Of a stretch of 22,749 bases of DNA, positions 5,450 to 22,749 are shown piece by piece. The notes under the pieces are model-generated. The model ran no database searches. It was given only the letters and a program-made list of their open reading frames with translations, and was not told the DNA's origin. A program made the position numbers and the translations under genes. Source of the stretch: a virus; UHGV virus genome UHGV-0233466; one strand, written 5' to 3'. Position 1 is the first letter of the stretch, and each line of letters starts with the position of its first letter.

Positions 5450-5460
5450 GATCTCACCTT

Positions 5461-5484: not shown

Positions 5485-5560
5485 GAACTGGAAGCAATGA
5501 GTTATGCCTTCCGTGGCTGTACTGGTTTACAGCATGAAGTCATCGCAATGGCGTCCTGCT

Positions 5561-5604: not shown

Positions 5605-5647
5605 AAGCACCTGGAACTTCTGGCATCACGGTCCTTAGGCGTGATTC

Positions 5648-5724
5648 TGGCGTGGCATGCAGGATTCGAACCTGCGACCAACCGCTTAGAAGGCGGTTGC
5701 TCTGTCCAACTGAGCTAATGCCAC
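5648..5724 (-). tRNA. tRNA-Arg (anticodon TCT, decodes AGA), 77 nt with encoded CCA
   Basis: Hand-folded cloverleaf: acceptor GTGGCAT/ATGCCAC, D-arm GCTC...GAGC, anticodon stem ACCGC/GCGGT with loop CTTCTAA, T-arm GCAGG-TTCGAAT-CCTGC, discriminator G, CCA. Confidence 0.85.
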
Positions 5725-6151
5725 AACGCTGAGAGCACTTAGCCTGTTAAGGCGCCACACTTTGTCGCGGCTCCATAAATGCTCTCATCGTTGTACCCTC
5801 GTCTCTTCCGAGGCGTCACACCGAATCGCCGGGATGGTGAATCCCCGTGCGCGGAATAAAACCGCTCGACTTGCACATTCCGGCTACCTGGTTCGTTTGC
5901 CCGAGCAAGGGAGGGTGCCCCTTAAACGTATCCAGACCGCTATCGGCGCATGTGCCATACGCCGTACTGCTCAAAATAAAAGCTCACTCCACCTGTTCAA
6001 TTTAACGACAAGCCAGTCAGGTTAATAACCGGAATGAACCATTTGCTTACCTGAAAGGTAATAATTAGTGCGTTAAATGTCAACTATCTACGATAAATAA
6101 ATCATATGTGGTTAAATTGGTAATAATTTAATTTCGTACGGAGTCATTGAT

Positions 6152-6358
6152 ATGTGCATGGGTAGCTCACCGTCAGTGCCTGCAACACCAGAAGTTCAGG
6201 CAGCACCACAGGAGCAGGATGCCGCCGTTGTTGATGCCCGCGACGAAGAAACTCGTCGCCGTCGCGCTGCTGCTGGTCGTAGTTCTACGCTGCTTACCGG
6301 TTCTCAGGGTGACACATCAACCGCTAATACCAGCGGTAAAACGCTGCTTGGTCAGTAA
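6152..6358 (+). CDS. small virion protein resembling T7 gp6.7 (68 aa)
   Basis: ATG 6152 with GGAG 8 nt upstream; N-terminal MC... and Ala/Gln/Glu/Thr-rich composition recalled as similar to T7 gp6.7; immediately upstream of the portal gene; the overlapping 6147 frame has a TTG start and no SD. Confidence 0.45.
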   Translation: MCMGSSPSVPATPEVQAAPQEQDAAVVDARDEETRRRRAAAGRSSTLLTGSQGDTSTANTSGKTLLGQ

Positions 6359-6372
6359 CCGGAGTCATTGAA

Positions 6373-8052
6373 ATGGCGGAAACAACTAAAGAGCGATTGA
6401 ACAAACAGTTCGCACAACTTGAAAGCGAGCGTCAGTCGTTCGAGCCGCACTGGCGCGAGTTGAGTGATTACATCAACCCGCGTGGTTCCCGCTTTCTGAC
6501 TTCTGAGGTTAACCGTAACGATCGACGCAATACACGCATTATTGATTCGACCGGGACTATGGCGGCGCGCACTCTTGCCAGCGGCATGATGTCAGGCATA
6601 ACAAGCCCCGCCCGTCCGTGGTTTCGCCTGGCTACGCCAGATCCTGAAATGATGGACTATGGCCCTGTTAAGTTGTGGCTTGAGGCAGTTCAGAACCGCA
6701 TGAACGATATGTTCAATAAGTCGAATCTCTACCAGTCTCTTCCGCAGTTATACGGAAGCCTCGGCACATACAGCACTGGTGCAATGGCGGTGCTGGAGGA
6801 TGACGAGGACATCATTCGCACAATGCCATTCCCGATAGGCAGTTACTACCTGGCTAACTCACCTCGTGGCAGTGTGGACACCTGTTTTCGCAAGTTCTCT
6901 ATGACTGTTCGTCAGCTTGTTCAGGAGTTCGGGCTAAATAACGTCAGCGAATCCGTAAAAAGCATGTGGGAAAGCGGCACCTACGAGAAGTGGATTGAAG
7001 TGATGCATTCGGTTTACCCGAACATTGACCGCGATACATCGAAGCTGGATAGCAAGAACAAGCCATTCAAATCGGTTTATTACGAGGTTGGTGGCGATAA
7101 CGACAAGTTGTTGCGTGAGTCCGGATTCGATGAGTTTCCAATTATGGCTCCGCGCTGGGAAGTTAACGGCGAAGATGTTTATGGATCATCATGCCCGGGT
7201 ATGCTGGCGCTTGGACCTGTTAAGGCATTGCAGCTTCTCCAGAAGCGCAAGTCGCAGTTGATTGATAAAGCCACCAATCCGCCGATGGTTGCTCCGACTT
7301 CCCTCAAGAATCAGCGCGCCTCCCTTCTTCCTGGCGACATCACGTATATCGATCAGATTACTGGTCAGGATGGTTTCAGGCCTGCTTATCTGGTTAACCC
7401 CAGTACAGCAGATTTGGTGGCAGACATTCAGGACACTCGTCAAATCATTAACAGCGCCTACTTTGTCGATCTGTTCATGATGTTGCAGAACATCAATACC
7501 CGCTCGATGCCTGTGGAAGCGGTGATCGAAATGAAAGAAGAAAAACTTCTGATGTTGGGGCCGGTTCTGGAGCGCCTGAACGACGAATGTCTTAATCCTC
7601 TCATTGACCGCTCTTTCTCGATGATGGTGCGTAAAAACATGCTGCCGCCACCGCCAGACGTGATGGAAGGTATGCCCCTGAAGGTCGAATACATTTCCGT
7701 CATGGCTCAGGCGCAGAAGTCTATCGGCCTGTCCAGTCTGGCGTCCACGGTTAACTTCATTGGTCAACTTGCGCAAGCGAAACCAGAAGCTCTCGACAAA
7801 CTCAACGTTGATCAGGCGATCGATGCATTCGCTGATATGTCCGGAGTGTCTCCAACCGTCATTGTTCCGCAGGAACAGGTTGAGCAGGCTCGCCAGCAAC
7901 GGGCACAGCAACAACAGCAGCAACAAATGATGGCGATGGGGATGGCGGCGGCACAGGGTGCCAAGACGCTAAGCGAAGCTAAAACTTCGGATCCGAGTGT
8001 TTTGTCAGCTATGGCGAATGCAGTTAGTGGTCAGGGTGGGCAATCACAATGA
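6373..8052 (+). CDS. portal protein (559 aa) with Gln-rich C-terminal tail
   Basis: Size and position between terminase and scaffold/capsid; GGAG SD; C-terminal QQRAQQQQQQQ tract. Confidence 0.7.
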   Translation: MAETTKERLNKQFAQLESERQSFEPHWRELSDYINPRGSRFLTSEVNRNDRRNTRIIDSTGTMAARTLASGMMSGITSPARPWFRLATPDPEMMDYGPVKLWLEAVQNRMNDMFNKSNLYQSLPQLYGSLGTYSTGAMAVLEDDEDIIRTMPFPIGSYYLANSPRGSVDTCFRKFSMTVRQLVQEFGLNNVSESVKSMWESGTYEKWIEVMHSVYPNIDRDTSKLDSKNKPFKSVYYEVGGDNDKLLRESGFDEFPIMAPRWEVNGEDVYGSSCPGMLALGPVKALQLLQKRKSQLIDKATNPPMVAPTSLKNQRASLLPGDITYIDQITGQDGFRPAYLVNPSTADLVADIQDTRQIINSAYFVDLFMMLQNINTRSMPVEAVIEMKEEKLLMLGPVLERLNDECLNPLIDRSFSMMVRKNMLPPPPDVMEGMPLKVEYISVMAQAQKSIGLSSLASTVNFIGQLAQAKPEALDKLNVDQAIDAFADMSGVSPTVIVPQEQVEQARQQRAQQQQQQQMMAMGMAAAQGAKTLSEAKTSDPSVLSAMANAVSGQGGQSQ

Positions 8053-8345
8053 CAGATTACGAAGACGATCAACTGAAAGAAGAAAACGCCCGTAAGCAAC
8101 GTGACATGGCACAGCGTGAAATTGATGACATTCGCTTTGTCATGAGCAGTGAACAGGGGCGTCGCGTTGTCTGGTCGGTGCTGGAGAAAGGTCGTGTGTT
8201 TTCCGCTATCTCACCGATGGACGCTATGGCAATGGCATTTAATGAGGGGCAACGCAATCTGGCGCTGGAACTGTTTCAGCGCGTTATGGCGCATTGCCCT
8301 GAACAGTATTTGAAGATGGCCAAAGAGGCCAGTGAACAGGAGTGA
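8049..8345 (+). CDS. hypothetical head-module protein (98 aa)
   Basis: ATG overlapping the portal stop (ATGA); charged helical composition. Confidence 0.5.
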   Translation: MTDYEDDQLKEENARKQRDMAQREIDDIRFVMSSEQGRRVVWSVLEKGRVFSAISPMDAMAMAFNEGQRNLALELFQRVMAHCPEQYLKMAKEASEQE

Positions 8346-8347
8346 TC

Positions 8348-9043
8348 ATGAATTTATTTGAGCGTTTGCTGTATCGCCGTCTTTGCAATGAGCAACCAGT
8401 CGATGGTGGAGCAGCTCCGGCTGCGTCAGAACCGTCAGCGCCTGCAGGTGATAACCCTGCTCCAGTTGGTGATCCATCACAACAGGAAGGTGATAAGCCA
8501 CAACCTGTTGCTGATGGCGATAAACCTGCTGATAACAAAAAGCCTGAAAACGATAAGCAGGATGAAAAAAAGGACGGCGATAAACCAGAGGGTGCGCCTG
8601 AAAAGTACGAGTTTCAGGCTGCCGAAGGCGTAGAGCTGGATACAGAAGCGTTGAAGGAATTCGAGCCGGTGGCGCGAGAACTAAACCTGACCAACGAGCA
8701 AGCGCAAAAGCTGGTTGATGCTTATCCGAAGATTCTGGCAGGTGTTCAGCAGCGCCAGGCAGAAGCCTGGCAGAAAACAACCGAGCAGTGGGCTGCGGAT
8801 GTAAAAGCTGACAAAGAAATCGGTGGCGACAAGTTGATTTCTAACCTTAGCGCCGCACAGCGTGCGCTTGACCAGTTCGGGACACCTGAGCTCAAAGAAT
8901 ATCTGAACACCACCGGGCTGGGTAATCACCCTGATCTGGTCAAAACGTTCGTGAAAATCGGAAAGGCGATGTCTGAAGATGGCATGGTCACCGGTGGTAA
9001 TGAAGGCCAGCGTAGTGCGGCCGAAGTGCTCTATGGCAAATAA
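8348..9043 (+). CDS. scaffolding-like protein (231 aa)
   Basis: ATG 8348 with AGGAG 5 nt upstream; acidic Pro/Asp/Lys-rich N-terminal region with three GDKP repeats and helical C-terminal part; between portal and capsid genes. Confidence 0.5.
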   Translation: MNLFERLLYRRLCNEQPVDGGAAPAASEPSAPAGDNPAPVGDPSQQEGDKPQPVADGDKPADNKKPENDKQDEKKDGDKPEGAPEKYEFQAAEGVELDTEALKEFEPVARELNLTNEQAQKLVDAYPKILAGVQQRQAEAWQKTTEQWAADVKADKEIGGDKLISNLSAAQRALDQFGTPELKEYLNTTGLGNHPDLVKTFVKIGKAMSEDGMVTGGNEGQRSAAEVLYGK

Positions 9044-9057
9044 GAGAGGAAATGACA

Positions 9058-10044
9058 ATGGCTGTTAAAGGCTTAACTGCGCTAACGCTGGCTGACTGGG
9101 GTAAGCGCGTCGATCCAAACGGGAAAGTCGATAAGATTATCGAGCTTCTCGGTCAAACTAACCCGATCCTTCAGGATATGCCTTTTGTCGAAGGGAACCT
9201 TCCTACCGGACACCGAACCACCATTCGTTCTGGTTTACCTTCAGCTACCTGGCGTTTGCTGAACTATGGCGTACAGCCAAGCAAATCAACCACAGTGCAG
9301 GTAACCGATTCCGTTGGCATGCTGGAAACCTATGCGGAAGTCGATAAGTCACTGGCTGATCTGAACGGCAATACCGCCGAATTCCGCCTTTCTGAAGACC
9401 GCGCATTTATTGAAGCGATGAATCAGCAGATGGCGCAGACGCTGTTTTATGGTGATTCCAGCGTTAATCCTCAGCAGTTTATGGGACTGTCCTCCCGCTA
9501 TTCCAGCCTGTCTGCGGGTAATGCTCAGAACATCATTGATGCTGGTGGCACGGGTACAGATAACACCTCAATCTGGTTAGTGGTGTGGGGCGAAAACACC
9601 GTGCATGGCATCTTCCCGAAAGGGCAGAAGGCTGGCATCCAGATGGAAGATAAAGGCCAGGTGACACTGGAAGATGCTAATGGCGGCAAGTACGAAGGCT
9701 ATCGCACCCATTACAAATGGGATAACGGACTTGCTCTGCGTGACTGGCGTTATGTTGTTCGCATTGCAAACATCGATGTCAGCAATCTTTCAGAACCATC
9801 CTCTGCCGCAAATATTGCGAAGTTGATGGTTAAAGCACTACATCGCATTCCAAACCGTGGCATGGGCCGCCCGGTGTTCTACATGAACCGCACTGTAGGC
9901 CAGGCTCTTGATCTGCAGTCTCTGGAGAAAACATCTCTGGCTATCAGCGTAAAAGAGACAGAAGGCGAGTGGTGGACTTCATTCCGTGGTGTACCAATCC
10001 GTGAAACTGATGCGCTTCTGGAAACAGAAGCCCGCGTGGTGTAA
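9058..10044 (+). CDS. major capsid protein (about 328 aa; alternative ATG at 9052)
   Basis: GAGAGGA SD at 9044-9050; size and position after the scaffold; followed by a stem-loop. Confidence 0.7.
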   Translation: MAVKGLTALTLADWGKRVDPNGKVDKIIELLGQTNPILQDMPFVEGNLPTGHRTTIRSGLPSATWRLLNYGVQPSKSTTVQVTDSVGMLETYAEVDKSLADLNGNTAEFRLSEDRAFIEAMNQQMAQTLFYGDSSVNPQQFMGLSSRYSSLSAGNAQNIIDAGGTGTDNTSIWLVVWGENTVHGIFPKGQKAGIQMEDKGQVTLEDANGGKYEGYRTHYKWDNGLALRDWRYVVRIANIDVSNLSEPSSAANIAKLMVKALHRIPNRGMGRPVFYMNRTVGQALDLQSLEKTSLAISVKETEGEWWTSFRGVPIRETDALLETEARVV

Positions 10045-10060
10045 CGCCTGTTATTAACCT

Positions 10061-10080
10061 GTGGGTCGTAACAGACCCAC
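10061..10080 (+). other. perfect 7-bp stem-loop after the capsid gene without a U-tract (possible RNA processing or stability element)
   Basis: GTGGGTC-GTAACA-GACCCAC read directly; next 3' bases are TAATGGAG. Confidence 0.4.
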
Positions 10081-10095
10081 TAATGGAGAAAGAAG

Positions 10096-10533
10096 ATGAT
10101 CACCGACAAACTGTTGATGTTCTCCGAAGCTCAGGCGGTTACGAATACCGCGGCTTCTACTGACGTAATCGATCTCGGCCCAATTGACGGAAAACGTCGT
10201 GATATCGGCGTGGGTTACCCACTTGAGTTTTGGGCGCTGGTTAACACAGCCGCCGCGGCAAGCGGTGATGCAACTGTAAACATCCAGTTGCAGACGAGTG
10301 AGAATAACAGCTCATGGACCACTATTTATGATAGTGGCGCACTGGCAAAGACCGCCCTGACAGCAGGTAAACGAGTTGTTTCTGCAAAGGTGCCTGCCGG
10401 TGTTCAGCGATATCTGCGTGTTAACTACTCCGTCGCAACTGGCCCACTAACGGCTGGCAAATTCACTGCGGGTATCAGTCTGGATGTTGATGCCAATACG
10501 CCGTACCCGATCCGCTCAAAAGTAACTGGTTAA
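10096..10533 (+). CDS. hypothetical virion protein (145 aa), possibly a capsid accessory or decoration protein
   Basis: ATG 10096 with GGAGAAAG SD; Thr/Ala/Ser/Gly-rich composition; position after the capsid gene. Confidence 0.5.
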   Translation: MITDKLLMFSEAQAVTNTAASTDVIDLGPIDGKRRDIGVGYPLEFWALVNTAAAASGDATVNIQLQTSENNSSWTTIYDSGALAKTALTAGKRVVSAKVPAGVQRYLRVNYSVATGPLTAGKFTAGISLDVDANTPYPIRSKVTG

Positions 10534-10543
10534 GGTGATATCG

Positions 10544-10879
10544 ATGTCAGGTGAGAAACCAAGATACCGCGTTCTGCGCCTCTCTCATATCCATAACACT
10601 CTGTGGCCGGAGGGGGCAGAAATCGAATACGAAGGTGAGCCTGGTAGCGCACTGGAACCTGTTAACGATGCAGCCAGACAGGCAAAAGCAAAAGTTGCAG
10701 GAAAGGTGTCAATGGCAGCAACCAGCACCAAAATCATCAACGATGTGTCAGATGATGGTGAACTGGATAAGCTCCGTGAAGAGTACGAATTGCTCTTTAA
10801 CGAGAAGCCACACCATAACGCCAACGCCGAAACGCTACGCGAGAAGATCGCAGATAAGCGTAAAGAACTGGGCGTGTAA
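10544..10879 (+). CDS. hypothetical protein (111 aa)
   Basis: ATG 10544 with AAGGTGA 6 nt upstream; followed by an intrinsic terminator. Confidence 0.5.
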   Translation: MSGEKPRYRVLRLSHIHNTLWPEGAEIEYEGEPGSALEPVNDAARQAKAKVAGKVSMAATSTKIINDVSDDGELDKLREEYELLFNEKPHHNANAETLREKIADKRKELGV

Positions 10880-10897
10880 GCCTCGCGAATCAGACAA

Positions 10898-10918
10898 GGG
10901 GCTTCGGCCCCTTTATTG
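10898..10918 (+). terminator. intrinsic terminator downstream of the head genes
   Basis: GGGGC-TTCG-GCCCC hairpin followed by TTTATTG. Confidence 0.6.
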
Positions 10919-10935
10919 CAGGAGTATAGAAACTT

Positions 10936-11541
10936 ATGGCCTCTGTAGTAGAGATCTGCAATCGTGCGCTGTCCAATATTGGCAACAGCCGCAGCATTAA
11001 CAGCCTGACGGAAGCCAGCAAGGAAGCGGGGGAATGTTCGCTGCACTTTGAGGCCTGCCGTGATGCTGTGCTTTCTGATTTTGACTGGAACTTTGCTACC
11101 AAACGCGTGGCGCTTGCAGATACGAGCAATCCACCGCCTGACTGGGAATATGCGTACCAGTACCCGTCAGATTGTCTGCGCATTACTGAAATTATGCTTC
11201 CTGGTGTACGCAATCCAACAGCAGCAATGCGCGTTCAGTACGAAGTTGGTGCAGACACCAACGGAACAGGAAAGTTGATCTACACAGACCAGCCGCAGGC
11301 ATGGCTCAAGTATGTCTCTCGCGTTTCAGATGTGAACATGTTTGATGCCATTTTTATGGAGGCGTTGGCCTGGCGTCTTGCGGCAGCTATTAACATGGCG
11401 CTGACTGGGAATGCAGACCTCGGTACGTTTGCCCTCAATATGTACAATCGCGTGATTCTTAGTGCTGGCTCGCATAGCCAGAATGAATCACAGGAACCAC
11501 TGCCACCGGTTGACGAGTTTACCATTGCGAGGTTGTCCTGA
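10936..11541 (+). CDS. tail tubular protein A-like (T7 gp11-like adaptor), 201 aa
   Basis: N-terminal pattern (ICNRALSNIGNSRSINSLTE ... DFDWNFA) recalled as similar to T7 gp11 (ILASIGEPPVSTLE ... RGWTFN); position directly upstream of the large gp12-like gene. Confidence 0.55.
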   Translation: MASVVEICNRALSNIGNSRSINSLTEASKEAGECSLHFEACRDAVLSDFDWNFATKRVALADTSNPPPDWEYAYQYPSDCLRITEIMLPGVRNPTAAMRVQYEVGADTNGTGKLIYTDQPQAWLKYVSRVSDVNMFDAIFMEALAWRLAAAINMALTGNADLGTFALNMYNRVILSAGSHSQNESQEPLPPVDEFTIARLS

Positions 11542-14012
11542 TGGCTATCAGTTGGATCCAGCCCAGCTTTGCCGGTGGTGAGATTGGACCGTCGTTGTAC
11601 GGTCGTATTGACATGGCGAAGTACCAGGTGGCATTGCGCAAGTGCGATAACTTTATCGTGCGGCAGTATGGCGGAGTTGAGAATCGACCTGGTACGCGTT
11701 TTGTCGGTGCCGCCAAATACCCAAATCGGAAATGCCGCCTGATCCCGTTCCAGTTCTCGACGGTTCAGACTTATGCTCTGGAATTCGGACACCAGTACAT
11801 GCGCGTTATCAAAGATGGTGCGTTGGTGCTGAACAGCAGCAATGTTATTTATGAAATTGCCACGCCATATACTGAAGCCGATCTGTTCCGAATTAAATTC
11901 ACGCAAAGCGCCGACGTGCTTACGTTGGTTCACCCGGCATACCCGCCGAAAGAGCTGCGCCGCTATGCGCATGACAACTGGCAACTGGTTGATGTGGTAA
12001 CGAAGAACGGGCCATTTGAAGATATCAATATTGACGAGTCAGTGACGGTTTATGCCAGCGCCAGCACCGGGACAATTACGTTAACGGCAAGCGCCTCTAT
12101 TTTTGGCGCGGAGCAGGTAGGCAAATTGTTCTATCTGGAACAGCCTGCAGTGGATTCTGTGCCGGTATGGGAAACCAGTAAGAGTACGTCGATTGGCGAT
12201 ATTCGCCGTGCAGACAGTAACTACTATCGCGCCGTTACAGCAGGCAAAACAGGCACTTTGCGCCCTTCGCATACAGAAGGCACATCATGGGATGGCTGGG
12301 GCGGATCCGGTGATGATGATACTGGCATTGAGTGGGAGTATCTGCACAGTGGTTTTGGCATTGCCCGTATCACTGCTGCAAATGGCACTACTGCAACTGC
12401 TGAGGTGATTTCCTATATCCCTTCGCAGGTCGTTGGCGAGGATAATGCCAGCTATAAATGGGCTAAATATGCCTGGAACAGTGTTAATGGTTATCCTAGC
12501 ACTGTTGTTTATTATCAACAACGTCTTTACTTCGCCGCATCGACTGCGTTCCCTCAGACTATCTGGGCCAGCCGTACCGGGGATTATAAGGATTTTGGCA
12601 AAAGCAATCCTACGCAGGATGACGACAGAATTATCTACACCTATGCCGGACGTCAGGTTAATGAGATCCGCCACCTGATTGATGTTGGTTCTCTGGTGGC
12701 GCTGACTTCCGGAGGTGAGTACGTCATCACCGGCGACCAGAACAAAGTGTTAACCCCATCATCATTTGCATTCAGCTCTCAGGGATCAAATGGCTCAAGC
12801 AACGTCCCGCCAATTGCCGTGGCGAATATTGCTCTGTTCGTCCAGGAGAAAGGCAGCGTTGTCCGTGATCTGGCCTACTCATTCGATGTTGACGGCTATC
12901 AGGGGAACGACCTGACCATCCTTGCCAATCATCTTTTTCAGAAGCACAGCATTGTTGACTGGTGCTTCTCGATAGTCCCTTACTCCAGCGCCTTCTGCAT
13001 TCGTGATGACGGTAAATTACTGGTGATGACCTATTTGCGTGATCAACAGGTTTTTGCATGGGCACCACAGTCCAGTACCGGAAAATATGAAAGCACATGC
13101 AGTATCAGCGAAGGCAATGAAGATGCGGTGTATTTCGTCATTAACCGAACCGTTAACGGGCAAACAGTGAGATACATCGAGCGACTGTCCAGCCGTTTAT
13201 TTACCAGCGATGAAGATGCTTTCTTTGTTGATTCTGGCCTTAGCTATGATGGAAGAAATACGTCTGACAGAACGATGACCATCACTGGTGGTTCTGGCGA
13301 ATGGGATTACTGCGCGGAATATACAATCAGTGTTTCTGGTGGTGCGTACTTCACCAGTAGTGATGTCGGCGCGCAACTACAGTTCCCTTATACCGGAACT
13401 GATCCTGATACTGGCGATGAGGTGTCAAAAGAATTACGTTGCGACATTATTTCTGTAACCAGCAATACCGCTGTAGTGGTTCGTGCTAACAGGAACGTCC
13501 CGCCATCCCTCAGGAATGTGGCCACCACGAACTGGCAGATGGCGCGCCGGACATTTGGCGGCTTGTCTCATCTTGAAGGCCAGACCGTAAACATCCTCTC
13601 TGATGCGAACGTGGAACCACAGAAAGTGGTTTCCGGAGGTGCCGTCACGCTGGAATCACCTGGGGCTGTTGTGCACATCGGCCTGCCAATAACTGCTGAA
13701 TTCGAAACACTGGATATCAACATTAACGGACAGGAAACGCTGCTGGACAAAAAACAGGTGATCCCGTCCGTTACTCTGGTTGTGAATGCCAGTCGCGGCA
13801 TCTGGGCGACTACGCCCGGCGGTAAATGGTACGAATATCCACAGCGTGAATTCGAGTTCTACGATGATCCTGTTGATGATGCTACCGGAAAAGTAGAAGT
13901 GAAACTGGACAGTAACTGGGGCAAAAACGGACGTGTAAAAATCCGTCAGCTTGATCCGTTGCCGCTGTCTGTTCTTGCCGTTATTCCTCGCCTTACTGTT
14001 GGGGGATTCTGA
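11541..14012 (+). CDS. tail tubular protein B-like (T7 gp12-like nozzle), 823 aa
   Basis: ATGA overlap with the gp11-like gene; size close to T7 gp12; synteny. Confidence 0.5.
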   Translation: MAISWIQPSFAGGEIGPSLYGRIDMAKYQVALRKCDNFIVRQYGGVENRPGTRFVGAAKYPNRKCRLIPFQFSTVQTYALEFGHQYMRVIKDGALVLNSSNVIYEIATPYTEADLFRIKFTQSADVLTLVHPAYPPKELRRYAHDNWQLVDVVTKNGPFEDINIDESVTVYASASTGTITLTASASIFGAEQVGKLFYLEQPAVDSVPVWETSKSTSIGDIRRADSNYYRAVTAGKTGTLRPSHTEGTSWDGWGGSGDDDTGIEWEYLHSGFGIARITAANGTTATAEVISYIPSQVVGEDNASYKWAKYAWNSVNGYPSTVVYYQQRLYFAASTAFPQTIWASRTGDYKDFGKSNPTQDDDRIIYTYAGRQVNEIRHLIDVGSLVALTSGGEYVITGDQNKVLTPSSFAFSSQGSNGSSNVPPIAVANIALFVQEKGSVVRDLAYSFDVDGYQGNDLTILANHLFQKHSIVDWCFSIVPYSSAFCIRDDGKLLVMTYLRDQQVFAWAPQSSTGKYESTCSISEGNEDAVYFVINRTVNGQTVRYIERLSSRLFTSDEDAFFVDSGLSYDGRNTSDRTMTITGGSGEWDYCAEYTISVSGGAYFTSSDVGAQLQFPYTGTDPDTGDEVSKELRCDIISVTSNTAVVVRANRNVPPSLRNVATTNWQMARRTFGGLSHLEGQTVNILSDANVEPQKVVSGGAVTLESPGAVVHIGLPITAEFETLDININGQETLLDKKQVIPSVTLVVNASRGIWATTPGGKWYEYPQREFEFYDDPVDDATGKVEVKLDSNWGKNGRVKIRQLDPLPLSVLAVIPRLTVGGF

Positions 14013-14476
14013 TGGTCGATGTTCAAATTATTCCCGCAACCGAAGAGCATCTTCAGATGATTTTGCCGGATGTTCGTCAGGCTGATATTGACGAACTGTA
14101 TGCGGTATCACTGATGACTACCGAAGATGCGCTGCGTGTTGGTCTGCGTACTGCGACTATGGCCTGGTCAGGATTTGCGAACGGAGAACTGGTAACCATG
14201 TTTGGCGTATCTCCGGCGTCAATGATCGGTGGCAATGGTACGCCCTGGCTGGTCGGAACCAGCCGTATTGAAAAATATCAGAAGACATTTCTTCGCCACT
14301 GCCGACCTGTATTGCAGCAGATGCTGGCAGTTTATCCGCGCCTGGAAAACTACGTCGACGAGCGAAACCATGTTGCCAAAGCATGGCTGCACTGGCTTGG
14401 ATTCAGGCTTGAAGAAGCCGCGCCTTATGGTGCTCTTGGTCTTAATTTCCACAGATTTCACATGGAGAGAAAATAA
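14012..14476 (+). CDS. virion-associated protein (154 aa) in the gp13 position
   Basis: TGATG overlap with the upstream gene; position between the gp12-like and gp14-like genes. Confidence 0.45.
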   Translation: MVDVQIIPATEEHLQMILPDVRQADIDELYAVSLMTTEDALRVGLRTATMAWSGFANGELVTMFGVSPASMIGGNGTPWLVGTSRIEKYQKTFLRHCRPVLQQMLAVYPRLENYVDERNHVAKAWLHWLGFRLEEAAPYGALGLNFHRFHMERK

Positions 14477-15051
14477 TGTGCGATCCGGTTATTGCTGGTG
14501 GCGCAATGCTCGCCATGAGTGGCATTCAGGCATACACCCAGTACCAACAGGGAAGGTATGCCTCGAAGGTTGCAGAAGCGAACGCAGATATAGCCACAGC
14601 TCAGGCAAATGATGCAATAAACAGGGGTAACGCTGAAGCTGAGCAACGGCGCAGAGAGACCCGACAGCGGCTTGGTACACAGGCGGCGACAATGGGGGCG
14701 ACCGGCGCCGATTTATCTACAGGTAACGCGCTGGATATATTTGGTGACACTGCTCAGTTTGGCGCTCTTGATTCGCTGACGACGGTGAATAACGCGCAAC
14801 GCGAGGCTTACGGTTATCAGGTTCAGGCTGCCAACTATAAAGCAGAAGCCAGTTCAGCCCGTAAACAGGGGAATGTGGGAGCAGCAACAACATTGCTCAC
14901 TGCGCCTCTGAAGGCATACGGTGCGTACCAGATGTTTGGTGGGACGTGGAGTCCGTTCTCTAAAGGAAGTGCATCTGGTGGTGGAACGCCAATGTTATCT
15001 AACTCAGGTTTTATGAATTCTGACTCCCGATTCAAAATAGGAGGTTACTGA
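14476..15051 (+). CDS. internal virion protein A-like (T7 gp14-like), 191 aa
   Basis: N-terminus MC... followed by an Ala/Gln-rich helical region, recalled as similar to T7 gp14; TAATG overlap. Confidence 0.5.
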   Translation: MCDPVIAGGAMLAMSGIQAYTQYQQGRYASKVAEANADIATAQANDAINRGNAEAEQRRRETRQRLGTQAATMGATGADLSTGNALDIFGDTAQFGALDSLTTVNNAQREAYGYQVQAANYKAEASSARKQGNVGAATTLLTAPLKAYGAYQMFGGTWSPFSKGSASGGGTPMLSNSGFMNSDSRFKIGGY

Positions 15052-17768
15052 TGCCTGTTGTTCCTACTACATCCGGACGCCAGGTGCAAAGTCGTGGTGT
15101 GCAAACCGGTGGTTTTCAGACCTTCGATGTTCCTCAAGCAGGTCAGGTGCTGGCGAATGTCGCAGATCAGTATGCGGTGGCATATGGTGAAGCCAGGCAG
15201 AAAGCGAATGTTGCATTGTCTCAGGATGCCATCCTTCAGCTTAATCAGCGCAGCAATGAACGTCTTTATAACCCTCAAACCGGTTTTTATGCACAACAAG
15301 GCAAAAATGCGATTGGTAAGGGGCAAGAGTACATATCTGGATTTGATCAGGATGTGGAAGAAATAGCTGCTTCATTGACTGATGAAGCAGCAAGAAATAT
15401 GTTTTTGCAACAAGCCAGAACACAGAAAATTCAGTTCAGTACTGGAGTTCTCAGACATGAGATAGGGCAGACAAATGCCTATGAAGATGAGCAATATCAG
15501 GCAACGAGAAAATTATGGATACAAAATGAAGCGGATGCCTGGAATGACCCGCAAACTGCCACTTTAGCCAGAAATTCCAGAATGGTAGCCATTGCCAGAT
15601 ATGGAGCTGCCAGGGGATGGTCACAAGAACGCATTCTGGAAGAAATAGAAAGTGATGATCGCAGTGCCACAGAAATGCGGGCGAAGAATTATGCCGCTGC
15701 TAATCCGGAAGGATGGCTAAATGGTCTGTTTCAGAAAAATGATTCTGTAGGCATGGACATGCGTGCCATACGCCTTGTTGAATCAGGTGATCGTCATTTT
15801 AATCCTGATGGTAGTATTCTTGAAGGACCGAAAACATCTTCTGGAGAGAGGGCCCAGGGGAAATACCAGTTAATGCCGGGCACAGGGAAAGAACTGGCGG
15901 CCAAGCGTGGCGTTGAATACAACCCTACGGACGAACAACAGCATGAAATGCTTGCCAGTGACTATGTAAATCAACTGTATGGTAAGTACGGCTCAGAAAT
16001 ATTGACCGGAGCAGCATATAACTGGGGGATGGGTAACGTGGATAAACTGATCGCCAAAGTCGGTGATCCACGTAAAGGTGAAATATCAGAAGAAGAATTT
16101 ATCCGAAATCTTCCATCAGAAACACAAGGGTGGCTTTCCCGATATAGAAAAAATAAAACTGGAATGGATCCGCTGACTATTTATCAAATAGATAACCTTG
16201 CTAATAGTCAGATAGAAAAGCAAAGGAAGTTAATATTAGAACAGCTTGAGCCAGCTATTAATAACACCATGGCCCAGCTATATAACGGTGAGGTTCCAGA
16301 TTATATACCGGCTCAGGAGACCATCATCAGGGGGTATGGAAAAAACGCAGATAAAATAATCAATCAACTGGATATAGCGATTGATAACGCGAGAATATTC
16401 CAGGCAATTCAGTATTTGCCTCCTTCTCAGCAGCAAGAAGAAATGCAGAAAGTGAAGCCTGAGGTTAACGATCCTCACTATGCGTTAAAACTCGATGCTT
16501 ACGGAAAATTGTCTGCATTGCTTCAGAGATCAAATGAAGCAATTCAGGCGCAACGGGATTCACGCAGATTCAATGAGGCGCTGACAATAGGTGAAAAATT
16601 AGACCCAAGCAACAAGTCAATGCAGAAAGCTGCTGATTACACAGAAATGGCGCAGAACTTTCGTATTAATGATGCCTCCACTCATGATGGGGTTGTTCGG
16701 CTTGTGGCTCAGACTGGCATAATGCCTTCGCAGGTCATCACGCAGCTTTCAGCAGTATCCCGATCCAGTAATCAGGAAGTGGTTAAAAATGCAGCGGAGC
16801 TGTTTAGTCGGTTATATGAAACAGACAATGCATCTATTGGAAATATGCCGAAGGATATGCAGGGTTTTTATCTGACTGTTAAGCAACTAACTGATTCTGG
16901 CATGTCTGCTGATGCGGCTATCGAGCAGGCGCAGAACCTGACATACAACCAGACCGATGCTCTTAAAGCTCAATTGGCATCAACGCAGAGTTCAAAAGAG
17001 TACAAAAATGATCGCAGCAAGGCGATGAATTCTGCTGTCAGCAATATGGCGCAGTGGTTCCGTTGGGATCCTTCTGCGGATGACCAGACGCCGGAAGCAG
17101 CTAGATTCCGTAATGACTATCAGACGCTGTATGACATTAACTACCGCGTTGCTGGTGGTAACGCTGACGTAGCGAAGCAAATGACCAACCAGCAGATAGC
17201 CCGCACCTGGAGTATCAGCGAGGTTAACGGAGATGCACAGTTTATGAAATATGCACCGGAGGCGCTTTATCAATATGGGCCGTCAGGCTGGCAGGCGGCG
17301 CAGTGGAAAGCTGAAAAAGAACGGCTGATGTACGGTGAGCGCAAAGAGATTATAACAACCAGTCCGACGTTGCTTGGGATCACGTCAGGTAATGCTCCTG
17401 TAGTTGAGACAAAAACCCCTGAGAGTCGTATTAATGGAGAATTATTCATAACCCCTGACGTGTTAACACCCCGTAATGGTGATTACGCCATTATGGTAAG
17501 AACTAAGGATGAAAATGGCATCGATCGGGTCCAGCCGTTTTATAACAAACATGGGCGTCCTATGCGTTGGGAACCATCACTAGCAGATTGGGAACCTTAT
17601 AAGAAAATGCAGCAGGAACGGGAGCAGTACGAGCAGGAAGAAATTATGCGTGGACAGGCTATACGAAACTTCAAAGACAAGCATCGCGCTCTGGATGAGC
17701 AGTATCAGCGCCTGCATAACGAACGTATGGACAAATTTAAAGATTACTTTTCGTGGGGATCTAAATAA
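15051..17768 (+). CDS. internal virion/ejection protein with a lytic transglycosylase (SLT-like) domain, 905 aa
   Basis: SLT-like catalytic region (VESGDRHFNPDGS ... GKYQLMPGTGKELA ... AYNWGMGNVDKL) at about 15720-16080; size and position. Confidence 0.7.
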   Translation: MPVVPTTSGRQVQSRGVQTGGFQTFDVPQAGQVLANVADQYAVAYGEARQKANVALSQDAILQLNQRSNERLYNPQTGFYAQQGKNAIGKGQEYISGFDQDVEEIAASLTDEAARNMFLQQARTQKIQFSTGVLRHEIGQTNAYEDEQYQATRKLWIQNEADAWNDPQTATLARNSRMVAIARYGAARGWSQERILEEIESDDRSATEMRAKNYAAANPEGWLNGLFQKNDSVGMDMRAIRLVESGDRHFNPDGSILEGPKTSSGERAQGKYQLMPGTGKELAAKRGVEYNPTDEQQHEMLASDYVNQLYGKYGSEILTGAAYNWGMGNVDKLIAKVGDPRKGEISEEEFIRNLPSETQGWLSRYRKNKTGMDPLTIYQIDNLANSQIEKQRKLILEQLEPAINNTMAQLYNGEVPDYIPAQETIIRGYGKNADKIINQLDIAIDNARIFQAIQYLPPSQQQEEMQKVKPEVNDPHYALKLDAYGKLSALLQRSNEAIQAQRDSRRFNEALTIGEKLDPSNKSMQKAADYTEMAQNFRINDASTHDGVVRLVAQTGIMPSQVITQLSAVSRSSNQEVVKNAAELFSRLYETDNASIGNMPKDMQGFYLTVKQLTDSGMSADAAIEQAQNLTYNQTDALKAQLASTQSSKEYKNDRSKAMNSAVSNMAQWFRWDPSADDQTPEAARFRNDYQTLYDINYRVAGGNADVAKQMTNQQIARTWSISEVNGDAQFMKYAPEALYQYGPSGWQAAQWKAEKERLMYGERKEIITTSPTLLGITSGNAPVVETKTPESRINGELFITPDVLTPRNGDYAIMVRTKDENGIDRVQPFYNKHGRPMRWEPSLADWEPYKKMQQEREQYEQEEIMRGQAIRNFKDKHRALDEQYQRLHNERMDKFKDYFSWGSK

Positions 17769-20700
17769 TGCCAGTTTATGCACAAGCTGAAGATCTTAAT
17801 AACGGACTGATCCCGTCAGGTAATGTTTTGCCGGAACAAACTGGGTTTGATGTTGCCCTTCCGGAAGGGGCTAATCCTGAGCCATTGCCACCTGAGCCTT
17901 CCGTATGGGGGGCTGCAATGCGACAGAACAATATTCTGGCTGGTTTTTTCCGCCCAGCCAGACAGTTTGAACCGGTCGAAGGTTATAACCCATATGCTGA
18001 TAAAAATGAGTTGCACGGTTATGAATACTGGGGGGCGAAATTTGCAGATTCCCGATCGCCAGAGGAAACGGCGTGGATTAAGCAGCAGATAGATGATGAA
18101 AATGAAGACAGACGTTTATTGTCTGATGCTGGCGTAGTTGGAACCCTTGCCAGTATTGCTGCGGGAATGGATCCGGTTACTGTTGCGTCAATGTTTATCC
18201 CCGGTGCTCAAGGAGGGGCACTGGCGCGTATTGGCTCACAGATTGCGATTGGTGCTGCCGGTACTGCATTAAGCGAGGTTGTACTGAATAATCAGCAAAT
18301 AACACGCTCATGGGGTGAAAGTGCCGCTCACGTTGCAGCGGGTGCGATGATGAGCGGCGTGTTTGCCAGTGCTGGTGTTGCGCTTTCGCCATCAGTCCGG
18401 GCTGCAGCCACACGTGAGGTTGCTGATGCTCTTGATAATATGAGCATTACATCAGCGACTGACAGGGCTGCCGCTTCGCTTTCCGATGGTGGTAGTGTTG
18501 GTGCTATGAAAATTGATACAGCGACTCTGGATGATTTAACCCCTGTTTCTGGTGGGGTGGTTGGAAAGGCTGCATGGAAAGCAGGGAGCTATCTTACTCC
18601 TTTGACAAGGTTAATGGAGTCTCCGTCAAAGACAGTGCGAAAAACAACGCTGGAGTTAGCCGAAAATAATTTCACCCTTAAAGGAAATGAAAGGGGGATT
18701 GAAACACCGATAGCTGTAGAAACCCGTACACGTGGATGGCAGCGTGAAGAAGCTGCAGTTGTTGTCGGAAATAAACAGGCATACGCAAAGTATAAAGCTG
18801 ATGGTGGTGACATGAGTTTTGATTCATTTCGTCAGCAGGTTGGGAATGCGATGCGAAGCGGTGATGTTCATGCTAATCCTGTTGTTCAGGAAACGGCGCA
18901 GGCGATGCGAACTGTATTAAATCGGGTGAAAGTTGAAATGCAAAAGCTTGGTTTATTGCCGCCAGATGAAGAACTGAAAGCATTAGGTCAGGCAAGCTAT
19001 TTCCCACGTATATATAAAGTTGGAAAAATAATCAGTGAACGCGATAAATTTCGACGTATTTTGGTTGACTGGTGGTCGAGAGGCAATAAAACACTGGATC
19101 CTGAGGATGCTGAAATTGCAGCGGATATCGTAATTAATAAAATTACTGGTGCTAAGGTTCCACAGGATTTTGTCAGCGTATTTTCTGTAAAAGCCGCAGG
19201 TAGTACGAAAGAAAGAACATTAAATGTGCCTGATAGTCTTATCAGGGATTATCTCGAAAGTGATGTGAATTACGTGCTGCAACGTCATATCCGTGAAGCG
19301 GCAGCAGAAATTGAGTTGACGAGAACATTTGGCAAACGAACTATGGCTGAGCGTCTGCAATTAATTGAAGACGAATATGACAGTCTGTTACGGGAAGTGC
19401 CTGAAAAAATAAAGGCGAAATATGACGAAAGTGTGGCAAATCTGAAAGCACGTTATGAGAGCAATGGTGAAGTTGTTCCTCAGGGTAAACTCGATTCATT
19501 AATGCGAAAGTACGAAAAGGAATTACGGAAAGAACAGTCCAGACTTTCAAAATCAAGAGCAAATGATCTCAGAGACATAACAGCATTACGCGATCGTCTT
19601 GTTGGTACATATGGTATGCCTGATGACCCGTCTTCGTTTTTTGTTCGTGCTGGCGCTTTTCTGCGGGATGTGAACTTCACGACCAAACTCGGTGGAATGA
19701 CAGTATCAGCTATTCCAGATCTGGCCAGAGGGGTTATGGTTAATGGTTTCCGTAACACCATGAAAGGCTATGCTTCTCAGATATCCCAATCACCGGCATT
19801 TAAGGCCAGCAAAGAAGAGATGTTGAAGATGGGGATTGGATTGGAAACTGTACTACATTCACGTTCTCGTGCAATTGGTGATCTTGTTGACAGTTCTTCC
19901 AGGACAACAGCAGTCGAAGCAGGAATGGAGCGAATTACTGATGCCTTCGGCAAGCTGACACTCATGGATCGATTTAATGACATAAACAAATCCATGAACG
20001 GAATGCTCACGTCAGACGGTATTTTGTCTGGTGCGTTTTCTGCACGTCGCATGGCAAAACTCGGTATCAACGACAATATGGCTGCGCGTATTCGCAGTGA
20101 GTTCGAGAAACATGGTGAGGTAATTGATGGATGGCACATTGGTAACTTTGATAAATGGGACGATCAGTACGTTGCCGGAGTATTCCAGTCAGCGGTTCTG
20201 AAAGACGTTAATAACACTATCATCACCCCCGGTATTGGTGACACACCTTTATGGGCGAGTACTCCAATGGGGCGAACGATATTTCAGTTTAAATCATTCA
20301 CAACGGCTTCATACAACCGTGCGCTACTTGGTGGGCTACAGGAAGGAACTGCGCAATTTTATTATGGCACTGCATTTCAGATTGCTCTTGGCTCACTGGT
20401 CTATGCGCTTAAAGAAGCATCGAAAGGGAAAAATGTTGACTGGTCACCAGAGAAGCTGGTGCTTGAGGGTATAGATAGATCCGGTATTCTTGGGCCATTG
20501 ATGGAATATAACAACATGGCTGAAAAGGCTACTGGTGGTGCTGTTGGGCTGGGGGCTTTATTTGGCACTGGCACACAGTCTAGGTATGCCAGTCGTGGAT
20601 TCGTAGGATCTCTATTCGGACCGTCATTTGGTCTTGCGGATAGCATCATTGATGTGACCGCAGGAGTGTTGAATGGTGATGCCGGTGATCGTATTGTGCA

Positions 20701-20782
20701 TAATGTCCGAACCCTGATACCAGGCAATAACCTGTTCTGGATTGCGCCACTAATAAACCAGGTGGATCCGGTGATGCGGTGA
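17768..20782 (+). CDS. internal virion/ejection protein (1004 aa)
   Basis: TAATG overlap with the upstream gene; Gly/Ala-rich hydrophobic segments and helical regions; last gene of the rightward virion block. Confidence 0.6.
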   Translation: MPVYAQAEDLNNGLIPSGNVLPEQTGFDVALPEGANPEPLPPEPSVWGAAMRQNNILAGFFRPARQFEPVEGYNPYADKNELHGYEYWGAKFADSRSPEETAWIKQQIDDENEDRRLLSDAGVVGTLASIAAGMDPVTVASMFIPGAQGGALARIGSQIAIGAAGTALSEVVLNNQQITRSWGESAAHVAAGAMMSGVFASAGVALSPSVRAAATREVADALDNMSITSATDRAAASLSDGGSVGAMKIDTATLDDLTPVSGGVVGKAAWKAGSYLTPLTRLMESPSKTVRKTTLELAENNFTLKGNERGIETPIAVETRTRGWQREEAAVVVGNKQAYAKYKADGGDMSFDSFRQQVGNAMRSGDVHANPVVQETAQAMRTVLNRVKVEMQKLGLLPPDEELKALGQASYFPRIYKVGKIISERDKFRRILVDWWSRGNKTLDPEDAEIAADIVINKITGAKVPQDFVSVFSVKAAGSTKERTLNVPDSLIRDYLESDVNYVLQRHIREAAAEIELTRTFGKRTMAERLQLIEDEYDSLLREVPEKIKAKYDESVANLKARYESNGEVVPQGKLDSLMRKYEKELRKEQSRLSKSRANDLRDITALRDRLVGTYGMPDDPSSFFVRAGAFLRDVNFTTKLGGMTVSAIPDLARGVMVNGFRNTMKGYASQISQSPAFKASKEEMLKMGIGLETVLHSRSRAIGDLVDSSSRTTAVEAGMERITDAFGKLTLMDRFNDINKSMNGMLTSDGILSGAFSARRMAKLGINDNMAARIRSEFEKHGEVIDGWHIGNFDKWDDQYVAGVFQSAVLKDVNNTIITPGIGDTPLWASTPMGRTIFQFKSFTTASYNRALLGGLQEGTAQFYYGTAFQIALGSLVYALKEASKGKNVDWSPEKLVLEGIDRSGILGPLMEYNNMAEKATGGAVGLGALFGTGTQSRYASRGFVGSLFGPSFGLADSIIDVTAGVLNGDAGDRIVHNVRTLIPGNNLFWIAPLINQVDPVMR

Positions 20783-20793
20783 GTTAAACGCCT

Positions 20794-21357
20794 TTAGCAT
20801 GATTCAGGGGAAACCCCAATATTAAATATGAGTGACTCCCCTGAATCAGCATAATAATGTAATATTATTGACTTACGTTGTTTTCTTGCTTCGTAGAATA
20901 AACGCTCTTGCGGCGATAATTTGTGAAAACTGCCGGATGCACAATATATGTTTTTTAACTTTTCGCTGGTTGCTTTTATTGTATCTTCTGAGATGTATTT
21001 TAGGTATTTATCCGTATAGATGTTGCTACTATAAGAAATTAATGTTTTGCTGTTGTTGTGATGTATTGTATTTTTATCGTTGAAGTCTGTATTTTTATTT
21101 ACTGTCATTAGGTTTTTAATGATTACATGTAATACAATAGTCTCCCCATCATCAATTCCATATTTGATGTCATAGTCAGTATATTTATTTGTTATACCGC
21201 TTCCTGATAGCGGCACTATGTACTCTGAGAAAAATGAGTTTGCCGCGTGACCATCAAGAGCAATAGCTGTTTTTTTGTGGTAAAAATAAAACAATATTGA
21301 GAGAGTCAAAATAATAGCGACGCCTAATGCAACCTTTAATATAGATATGGTTTTCAA
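20794..21357 (-). CDS. AT-rich membrane-anchored protein (about 187 aa from a TTG start with a strong SD; alternative ATG at 21384); positional analogue of a superinfection-exclusion gene
   Basis: AGGAG (complement of 21365-21369) 7 nt upstream of TTG at 21357; N-terminal hydrophobic helix ISILKVALGVAIILTLSILFYFY followed by an Asn/Tyr/Lys-rich soluble domain; GC far below the neighbouring virion genes. Confidence 0.5.
   Translation of the reverse strand: MKTISILKVALGVAIILTLSILFYFYHKKTAIALDGHAANSFFSEYIVPLSGSGITNKYTDYDIKYGIDDGETIVLHVIIKNLMTVNKNTDFNDKNTIHHNNSKTLISYSSNIYTDKYLKYISEDTIKATSEKLKNIYCASGSFHKLSPQERLFYEARKQRKSIILHYYADSGESLIFNIGVSPESC
20800..20848. repeat. 12-bp perfect inverted repeat TGATTCAGGGGA / TCCCCTGAATCA with 25-bp spacer, at the junction of the virion module and the AT-rich leftward module
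   Basis: Read directly; overlaps the 3' end of the leftward membrane-protein gene; contains an inner GGGG-AAA-CCCC hairpin. Confidence 0.8.
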
Positions 21358-21447
21358 AATATCGCTCCTTGTTGTAACATACATCAGTAATGTGGCGTTT
21401 TTCAATTGTATTAAAGACGTGTAATATGTACACGCCTTTTGTTCTTC

Positions 21448-21879
21448 CTATTCAGGTATTTCAATTCCAAAACCATCTGCATCCCATGAGTTTTCACAGA
21501 TGATGTAACCTAGTTCATTGAGCTTATTAAATGTTTTTTCAAAGATGATCTGGTAATCATTATCTGCAAGTGATTCCAGTTCAAGGTCATTAAGGTTTAT
21601 ATAAAAACTTGTATGTCCAAGTGTTATTTTCTTATTAATTTCATTAAAGGTTCTTTTGAAAATAATATTTGATATTTCATGCCGTGCATTGTTTGCAATA
21701 ATTTTTGCTTCATAAGCAGAAATTACGTCATCTTCATGAATATCTTTCAGAAAGCTGGTGTCAAGACGTTGTACTATTTCAGCGTTCATTGATCGCTTAT
21801 TGGCTTTTGCAGAAATTTCTATTTTTTCTTTTACTTCAACGGGAAGTCTGATCCTTAGTTGTGGATCTTCTCTGCTCAT
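21448..21879 (-). CDS. Mnt-type ribbon-helix-helix repressor fused to an uncharacterised C-terminal domain of about 95 aa (143 aa total)
   Basis: N-terminus MSREDPQLRIRLPVEVKEKIEISAKANKRSMNAEIVQRL closely parallels recalled P22 Mnt (MARDDPHFNFRMPMEVREKLKFRAEANGRSMNSELLQIV); ATG at 21879 with GGTGAAG upstream; the track ORF extends further to a TTG start. Confidence 0.65.
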   Translation of the reverse strand: MSREDPQLRIRLPVEVKEKIEISAKANKRSMNAEIVQRLDTSFLKDIHEDDVISAYEAKIIANNARHEISNIIFKRTFNEINKKITLGHTSFYINLNDLELESLADNDYQIIFEKTFNKLNELGYIICENSWDADGFGIEIPE

Positions 21880-21915
21880 GTTCTTCACCAAATATTGAGT
21901 TACTTGCAATGATTG

Positions 21916-21965
21916 AAGTATGCCTCACCGTGTGCTTGACATCAATGACGCACGGTGTGACAATT
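21916..21965. promoter_or_regulatory. divergent overlapping promoters and operator region of an immI-like switch
   Basis: Rightward TTGACA (21936-21941), 17 bp, GACAAT; leftward TTGATG (complement of 21942-21947), 17 bp, CATACT; the two -35 boxes are back to back in TTGACATCAA; flanking direct repeats ACCGTGTG / ACGGTGTG. Confidence 0.45.
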
Positions 21966-21999
21966 GTTTTGCCCCACGGTGGGGCTAAGGAGATATGAA

Positions 22000-22167
22000 A
22001 TGCAAAAAGCAAAAGAGATGTGTCAACGACGAGTTCGTTTTCCGGACGATGTGAAGTTAGCTATTGAAAGAAATGGCGAAAAAGAATGCCGAAAGTTCAA
22101 TACAGAGATTATCTATCAGCTGAGGAAAGTGTATGGACTCACTGGTGAGAAGAATAGCGTGGCATAA
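22000..22167 (+). CDS. Arc-like ribbon-helix-helix repressor (55 aa)
   Basis: ATG 22000 with AAGGAGA 6 nt upstream; RVRFPDDVKLAIERNGEKECRKFNTEIIYQL parallels recalled P22 Arc (NLRWPREVLDLVRKVAEENGRSVNSEIYQRV); the track start at 21964 is TTG. Confidence 0.65.
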   Translation: MQKAKEMCQRRVRFPDDVKLAIERNGEKECRKFNTEIIYQLRKVYGLTGEKNSVA

Positions 22168-22240
22168 AACAGCGAAGCCCAACGGTGGCCAGACCGTCAT
22201 GGCTTCAGTATCGTAAAACTACGTATAGGAATTAACGACA
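22165..22240 (-). ncRNA. predicted sar-like small antisense RNA covering the ant translation start
   Basis: Minus-strand promoter TTGATA (complement of 22269-22274), 17 bp, TATACT (complement of 22246-22251), giving a start near 22239; minus-strand terminator hairpin GAAGCC...GGCTTC (22174-22206) followed by GCUGUUUU; same arrangement as P22 sar. Confidence 0.4.
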
Positions 22241-22749
22241 TGACGAGTATAGCAACAGCGGTATCTACTATCAACGTGCCATTCCACGGCGTAGAACTTT
22301 ATGTTGTCAATCACAACGGCGAACCGTACACACCAATGAAGCCTATCGTTGAGGGAATGGGTATGGATTGGGCTTCACAGTTTACGAAAATGAAGCAGCG
22401 GTTTAAAACCTGCATTGTGAAAATCACAATGCAGCTTCCTGGGGATGAACAGCGCCGTGAGATTATTTGTTTGGCACTTCGCAAACTTGCTGGCTGGTTG
22501 CAAACCATCAGCCCTAACAAAGTCCGTCCTGAAATCCGCGACAAGGTAATCCAGTATCAGGAAGAGTGTGACGATGTGCTCTACGAGTACTGGACTAAAG
22601 GCCATGTGGTTAACCCACGCAAAGCTAAAAAGGCGTTGCCGGGTAAAATAACCACTGAACAGCAGGAAGCCATTAAACAACTCGTCATGAGTCGCGGTCA
22701 GTCTCTGCCAAAAGAAAAACAGGCTAAGGCGATGATCACCATGTGGTCG
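22240..22749 (+). CDS. antirepressor (Ant-like, AntA-type N-terminal domain), 5' part only; runs off the window end
   Basis: ATG 22240 with AGGA upstream; open frame of 170 codons to the window edge; motif PFHGVELYVVNHNGEPYTPMKPIVEGMGMDW recalled from phage antirepressors; position after arc. Confidence 0.65.
   Translation, partial: MTSIATAVSTINVPFHGVELYVVNHNGEPYTPMKPIVEGMGMDWASQFTKMKQRFKTCIVKITMQLPGDEQRREIICLALRKLAGWLQTISPNKVRPEIRDKVIQYQEECDDVLYEYWTKGHVVNPRKAKKALPGKITTEQQEAIKQLVMSRGQSLPKEKQAKAMITMWS

Follow-up and report, generated by a model that had tools for sequence, protein, structure and literature searches.

Does the antirepressor gene ant at the end of a 22,749-nt stretch of viral DNA (the window, meaning the whole sequence analysed here) carry an antisense RNA across its start, as the ant gene of phage P22 does? 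Four papers (PMC7968456, PMC2629481, PMC3134472, PMC13397905), which attribute the function to Liao 1987, Wu 1987, and Schaefer and McClure 1997, describe P22 sar as an antisense RNA of 68-69 nt. By base-pairing with the arc-ant transcript at the ribosome-binding site of ant, it keeps Ant from being synthesised; Ant, if made, inactivates the prophage repressor. Sequence comparison suggests, with a probability that we put at close to nine in ten, that a functional homologue of sar is encoded here, in a P22-type immI module (mnt-like, arc-like and ant) of a TL-2011b-like prophage.

Layout of the arc-ant region

The elements of the module are listed here by their position in the window:

21879..21448, minus strand, divergent from arc: mnt-like gene with an N-terminal Arc/Mnt ribbon-helix-helix domain (Pfam Arc, E 1.1e-14)
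21936..21964, plus strand: Pant-like promoter, TTGACA-17-GACAAT, convergent with the Psar-like promoter and conserved in relatives
22000..22167, plus strand: arc-like small ribbon-helix-helix gene, 55 aa (BLASTP to P22 Arc)
22239..22166, minus strand: predicted antisense RNA of the sar type, about 70-74 nt long; its 5' G lies at 22239, 7 nt after the -10
22239..22210, minus strand: stem-loop I, a 5-bp outer stem (GUCGU/ACGAU) with a large loop
22231..22227, minus strand: anti-Shine-Dalgarno UUCCU in loop I, read from the sequence as the complement of the ant Shine-Dalgarno AGGAA
22206..22174, minus strand: stem-loop II, the intrinsic-terminator hairpin GAAGCCAUGACGGU-CUGGCC-ACCGUUGGGCUUC (GAAGCC...GGCUUC; -16.3 kcal/mol)
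22200: private base, T on the plus strand and thus A at RNA position 40 (relatives: G, giving C in the RNA)
22173..22166, minus strand: terminator tail GCUGUUUU, whose U tract overlaps the arc stop codon (22165-22167)
22254..22246, minus strand: Psar-like extended -10, TGcTATACT, in ant codons 3-5 (Ser-Ile-Ala, the Ile codon being ATA)
22274..22269, minus strand: Psar-like -35 hexamer, TTGATA, 5/6 to consensus, in ant codons 10-12
22240..22749, plus strand, running off the window end: 5' part of ant (antirepressor; Pfam P22_AR_N, E 5.6e-45)

The ant product is 44% identical to P22 Ant (E 9e-39), and the Mnt-like protein is 32% identical to P22 Mnt (E 3e-14). The Arc-like protein shares 33% identity with P22 Arc over 40 aa (pairwise BLASTP, E 4e-5); its Pfam Arc match, at 12.8 bits, falls under the cut-off, and RefSeq TL-2011b names the product of this gene 'Arc-like repressor'.

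The original prediction placed a near-consensus sigma-70 promoter (TTGATA-17-TATACT) on the minus strand within the first ant codons, pointing leftward, and an intrinsic terminator for the same strand in the arc-ant spacer, to yield a transcript of roughly 70 nt. A consensus scan of the minus strand recovered the promoter at 22274..22246, with a 17-nt spacer between the -35 and -10 hexamers and 10 of 12 consensus matches. The TG at 22254..22253 makes it a promoter of the extended -10 type and, with the ant ATG at 22240, it covers ant codons 3-12. The terminator was likewise found in the spacer, its hairpin spanning 22206..22174 and its tail reaching 22166, and a start at 22239 would then give an RNA of 70-74 nt, in agreement with the predicted length.

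The minimum-energy fold of this RNA consists of a 5' hairpin followed by the terminator hairpin and a U tail, and the ant Shine-Dalgarno, AGGAA, sits 9 nt ahead of the ATG. As a whole, the RNA folds not much better than shuffled sequence (z -1.89), and the U tract of the terminator is short (4 U). There is no T run after the hairpin on the plus strand, and a terminator role for the hairpin on that strand was rejected for this reason.

By score alone, neither motif stands out: promoter-like sites in 21000-22749 were not above chance (4 found vs 5.2 expected), and terminator-like sites in the same interval were similarly unremarkable (2 found vs 1.2 expected). The case therefore stands on geometry, homology and covariation. 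The Psar-like promoter and the terminator form the sole promoter-terminator pair on one strand within ~100-120 nt, and a match of 10/12 together with the TG was reached by two sites only in 20 kb, the Psar-like promoter and the convergent Pant-like promoter at 21936..21964. Across 2750-22749, sigma-70-like promoter matches are depleted (12 vs 26.4 expected from shuffles), and the two convergent promoters are the two best such matches in that interval. A search of the literature on Pant-Psar interplay returned nothing usable.

The promoter lies within coding sequence, and its variation among relatives could be followed codon by codon. Among 34 unique close relatives, a small sample of related and mosaic sequences, synonymous variation is absent at ant codons 3-5 (Ser AGT, Ile ATA, Ala GCA) under the -10 and its TG, and likewise at the Ile codon ATC under the -35, but it is present in the ant codons under the promoter spacer and at the base just outside the -35. 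This pattern indicates that the sar promoter hexamers are under a constraint of their own. In an alignment of the unique close variants plus P22, the TTGATA -35 was present in 31 of the 32 close variants. In distant genera the -35 is variable and often weak, as it is in P22; TGnTAnACT occurs 4-8 nt from the predicted start in most of these loci, though the N-terminus of Ant changes there, and the extended -10 in the first codons of ant is retained from Escherichia to Xenorhabdus.

Several other features surround the module. Between 21921 and 21985, around the Pant-like promoter, a 12-nt motif (TGCCyCACsGTG) occurs in three copies spaced 24-25 bp apart; two of the three are a perfect palindrome, CCCCACGGTGGGG, in relatives, and the third forms a hairpin just ahead of the arc Shine-Dalgarno. 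From the repeats we conjecture that these copies serve the Arc-like and Mnt-like repressors as operators. No Pmnt-like site was found at the scan threshold. The C-terminal ~60-90 aa of the 143-aa Mnt-like protein are without a Pfam match, as is the 203-aa product of an AT-rich ORF (20794-21405, minus strand), which has a hydrophobic segment at its N-terminus. This ORF adjoins mnt, in the position held by sieA/orf59a in P22, and may be a moron gene of the superinfection-exclusion type.

Kinship with P22 sar and conservation of the fold

The Rfam family for sar (RF00262) matches the minus strand at 22238..22171 over the entire model (positions 1-68/68) with a score of 43.6 bits (E 5.3e-6), only 0.6 bits above the family's gathering score of 43 bits. 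In the P22 record, sar is annotated at 15090..15021, Psar at 15097-15125, the end of arc at 15022 and the start of ant at 15091. With the window promoter at 22246-22274 and ant at 22240, both promoters therefore lie at +6 to +34 from the ATG. The original prediction held that the P22 sar arrangement is reproduced here, and the RF00262 match, promoter offset, 5' end, overlap of terminator and arc stop, fold, covariation and gene context all bear this out. The alignment with P22 sar that it proposed gave 51 identical positions in 79 aligned columns; in both, the RNA starts at -1. The block ATGannAGTATAGCAA aligns exactly between the window and P22, and the block ATGnnnAGTATAGCAA aligns base for base. 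A blastn search in distant mode with a 181-nt region gave no match to P22, because the two RNAs share only these 51 of 79 columns.

Like P22 sar, the predicted RNA is antisense, about 70 nt long and folded into two hairpins, with an anti-Shine-Dalgarno in loop I. Its 5' end lies directly ahead of the ant ATG, its 3' terminator overlaps the arc stop codon, inside which the terminator of P22 sar also ends, and its promoter, at +6 to +34 of ant, contains TGcTATACT. As in the P22 immI region, it is flanked by Arc-like, Ant and divergent Mnt-like genes. The two RNAs differ in several details. Stem I has 5 bp and -3.0 kcal/mol in the window as compared with 6 bp and -6.1 kcal/mol in P22 sar, and the terminator of the window (-16.3 vs -21.9 kcal/mol in P22) differs by a bulged stem, a larger loop and a mismatch of its own, whereas the -35 of the window (TTGATA) is closer to consensus than that of P22 (GTGTTA). 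The arc-ant spacer measures 72 nt as compared with 68 nt in P22, the Arc-like protein is very diverged from P22 Arc (33% identity), and the Mnt-like protein has 143 aa where that of P22 has 83 aa. The host phages differ too, the window belonging to a TL-2011b-like (Uetakevirus-type) podovirus of E. coli and P22 to the Lederbergvirus type.

We collected loci of Ant relatives, 80 from IMG/VR and 72 from one-genome-per-species contigs. The 27 unique RNA variants obtained from 82 loci, each folded alone, gave the same two-hairpin architecture, and all 27 carry a pyrimidine-rich anti-Shine-Dalgarno in loop I. The fold is held across at least 6 different stem I sequences and at least 7 different stem II sequences. 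A plain MAFFT alignment misaligned stem I between allele types, and we therefore built a covariance model (R1) from 25 of the 27 variants and re-aligned the RNAs to it; R1 matches the window at 22239..22164 (minus strand) with 64.2 bits.

In the resulting alignment of 51 sequences (A5), which was fitted to a covariance model that favours pairing, 90.5% of cells are paired, as compared with 33-48% when the partners are slid. Since such fitting biases the counts towards structure, the independent folding of each variant served as a control. Both sides have changed in 15 of the 21 pairs, and the observed covariation score was reached by none of 500 shuffles. In helix 1 (stem-loop I), 6 of the 7 model pairs changed on both sides; in helices 2 and 3 (stem-loop II), which are 98% and 85% paired, 9 of 14 did so. 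G-U pairs are frequent in the minus-strand stems and correspond to A-C mismatches on the plus strand, which argues that the selected structure is that of the antisense RNA.

Matches to R1 on the minus strand directly upstream of ant were found in Yersinia, Erwinia, Lonsdalea, Klebsiella, Citrobacter and Pectobacterium, and further matches with the same orientation and position in Proteus, Providencia, Xenorhabdus, Photorhabdus, Hafnia and others. RF00262 scores are 45 bits for the nearest relatives of the window and 60-86 bits for P22-like variants. The window type lies at the edge of the Rfam family. Divergent sar-like RNAs with the same position and fold occur in seven of the collected loci (L009, L016 and L031, at about 1127-1202 on the minus strand, and L030, L050, L056 and L074); these score 29-31 bits with RF00262 or have no match at E below 0.1. 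As they lie below 43 bits, the current Rfam threshold misses part of the sar family. With its good covariation, wide taxonomic spread and sub-threshold variants, the comparative set could improve the Rfam seed.

In six Xenorhabdus loci (L104, L122, L130, L106, L138, L105) a second sar-like match lies ~1 kb upstream of the ant-linked copy. The second copy of L104 (51-125, minus strand) is found directly before an ORF on the plus strand (156-794) that encodes an antirepressor of a different family, with KilA-N and ANT (KilAC) domains.

Proposed action and competing explanations

On the reading that we prefer, the extended -10 sigma-70 promoter in ant codons 3-12 would fire leftward from about 22239, one base before the ATG, and the transcript would stop at the intrinsic terminator in the arc-ant spacer, leaving an RNA of some 70-74 nt. 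The 5' hairpin of this RNA would expose the anti-Shine-Dalgarno in its loop, with the terminator hairpin behind it. Since the RNA is complementary to the ant leader throughout, it could pair with the arc-ant mRNA and bury the Shine-Dalgarno up to position -1, so that ant translation would be blocked and synthesis of the antirepressor limited. For production of the RNA, termination at the predicted site and repression of ant, we reason by analogy with the work on P22, whereas the motifs, geometry, homology, conserved fold, covariation and gene context were observed in this study.

The RNA is an unannotated member of the long-known sar family, and since the sar mechanism has been textbook material since 1987, biologically there is nothing unexpected in it. 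Temperate phages and mobile elements have further cis-antisense RNAs that block a ribosome-binding site, among them lambda OOP and IS10 RNA-OUT; OOP is directed at the 3' end of cII and works via RNase III. Both are likened to sar as short, constitutively terminated RNAs that are made within or beside the target gene and pair with a translation initiation region (PMC3134472, PMC7968456; general knowledge), but they are unrelated to it in sequence, structure and target.

Two other explanations have to be weighed. One accepts the sar homology and holds that the window copy is weakened, because the C-to-A change in the terminator stem lowers termination or RNA stability; sar would then be less stable, or read-through would produce a longer antisense RNA to arc, extending into the mnt-like gene. 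The base in question is unique to the window: G stands at 22200 in E. coli AR_0085 and in each of the 31 other unique variants, and the window sequence with T has no exact match in IMG/VR. The T puts an A opposite a G in the terminator stem and breaks a conserved C-G pair, a position that was never counted unpaired in A5 (CG 39, UG 6, UA 4, gap 1). It weakens the predicted hairpin from -19.1 to -16.3 kcal/mol (a loss of ~2.8) and lowers the RF00262 score from 45.2 bits with the relatives' base to 43.6 bits, and the tail behind the hairpin has only 4 U. With the pair broken, termination or RNA stability may indeed be lower than in relatives. Nevertheless, the hairpin still has 6 + 6 bp of stem and -16 kcal/mol, respectable values for a terminator; P22 sar is functional with a tail of only 3 U; a single mismatch is unlikely to abolish function; and the T could be a sequencing error. 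We therefore consider a weakened copy unlikely, and the base itself may be neutral, mildly weakening or an error of sequencing.

The other explanation assigns the hairpin mainly to the plus strand or to the DNA, as a structure or processing site in the arc-ant mRNA or as a mosaic recombination boundary, with the promoter-like sequence arising as a by-product of the conserved Ant N-terminus (Ser-Ile-Ala ... Thr-Ile-Asn). The plus strand does fold (-18.9 kcal/mol, z -2.51), the Ant N-terminal motif is conserved, at least six unrelated genes are found upstream of the same sar-ant block, with the break in homology at the terminator, and a 'boundary sequence' is annotated under the match in the CUS-3 record. 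However, GU occupies pair 1-45 in 29 sequences, and UG or GU occurs in 26 sequences at each of two helix 2 pairs; the plus-strand hairpin lacks a following T run; synonymous positions are invariant under the hexamers, that of the Ile codon ATA among them; and the extended -10 is retained where the protein differs (e.g., MLSIP, MSTLA). Since P22 sar is, moreover, an experimentally characterised RNA, a plus-strand or DNA role as the main function appears very improbable.

The Uetakevirus-like host, the Xenorhabdus copy before a KilA-N/ANT gene and the low-scoring variants that fold identically suggest a broader reading, which we put forward tentatively and at somewhat less than even odds: antirepressor genes may take sar-type control with them, as a portable cassette, across Enterobacterales and phage types, and its range may be considerably broader than RF00262 recognises; separately, the T at 22200 may be a natural terminator-stem variant with an altered sar dosage and therefore an altered threshold of Ant expression.

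The T at 22200 also creates a small ORF on the plus strand (ATG at 22199, MASVS*), which was taken as chance and has no convincing Shine-Dalgarno. Over the last 3850 nt, no other position separates the window from E. coli AR_0085. The idea that the whole window is AR_0085 plus one substitution was rejected, as the rest differs at 247 positions over 20.5 kb.

Prophage context, mosaicism and annotation

The prophage in which the element lies is an E. coli prophage of the TL-2011b type. TL-2011b, which has been placed with the epsilon15-like genus Uetakevirus (PMC9782041), is 93% identical to the window across the sar region, and the structural genes of the window fit that placement (portal, capsid, a T7 gp14-like core protein and a transglycosylase). 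The immI module of the window is located after the large internal-protein genes, a position comparable to that of the 'ant moron' in P22-like phages (PMC2629481). Across TL-2011b and E. coli prophages such as AR_0085, the arc-sar-ant region is 93-99.8% identical to that of the window. The RNA of the TL-2011b/AR_0085 type is the same as the window RNA bar one or two bases, has C at position 40 where the window has A, and scores 45 bits with RF00262.

That ORF-based annotation would miss such an RNA, as the original prediction anticipated, holds for TL-2011b and for the closest E. coli records, which show nothing but protein-coding genes at this place. The sar region has a match in about 196 of 5426 complete E. 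coli genomes, and with the RNA unannotated, a predicted regulator of antirepressor synthesis is thus routinely missed. This bears on antirepressor synthesis, and hence on prophage immunity and induction.

The annotation of ant itself varies. The RefSeq record of AR_0085 starts ant at a GTG (window 22276; L155 3377), 12 codons downstream of the conserved ATG and its Shine-Dalgarno, and with this start the sar promoter would fall outside ant. The ATG at 22240 is supported as the start by RefSeq TL-2011b and by homology to P22.

A mosaic junction is visible at 22166-22175 and at the equivalent positions in L003-L082, where homology stops at the 3' limit of the sar terminator. The same sar-ant block follows at least six unrelated genes there, whose products include members of several ribbon-helix-helix families, a Cys-rich protein of 67 aa and a membrane protein, and many of the E. 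coli matches begin at window position 22166 or 22174. It is under the sar match that the CUS-3 record annotates its 'boundary sequence'.

Elsewhere in the prophage, between the portal-side and terminase genes, the window carries a tRNA gene (5651-5724, minus strand; 73 bits) with the anticodon loop CUUCUAA, and the AR_0085 record annotates a tRNA-Arg in the same part of the prophage.
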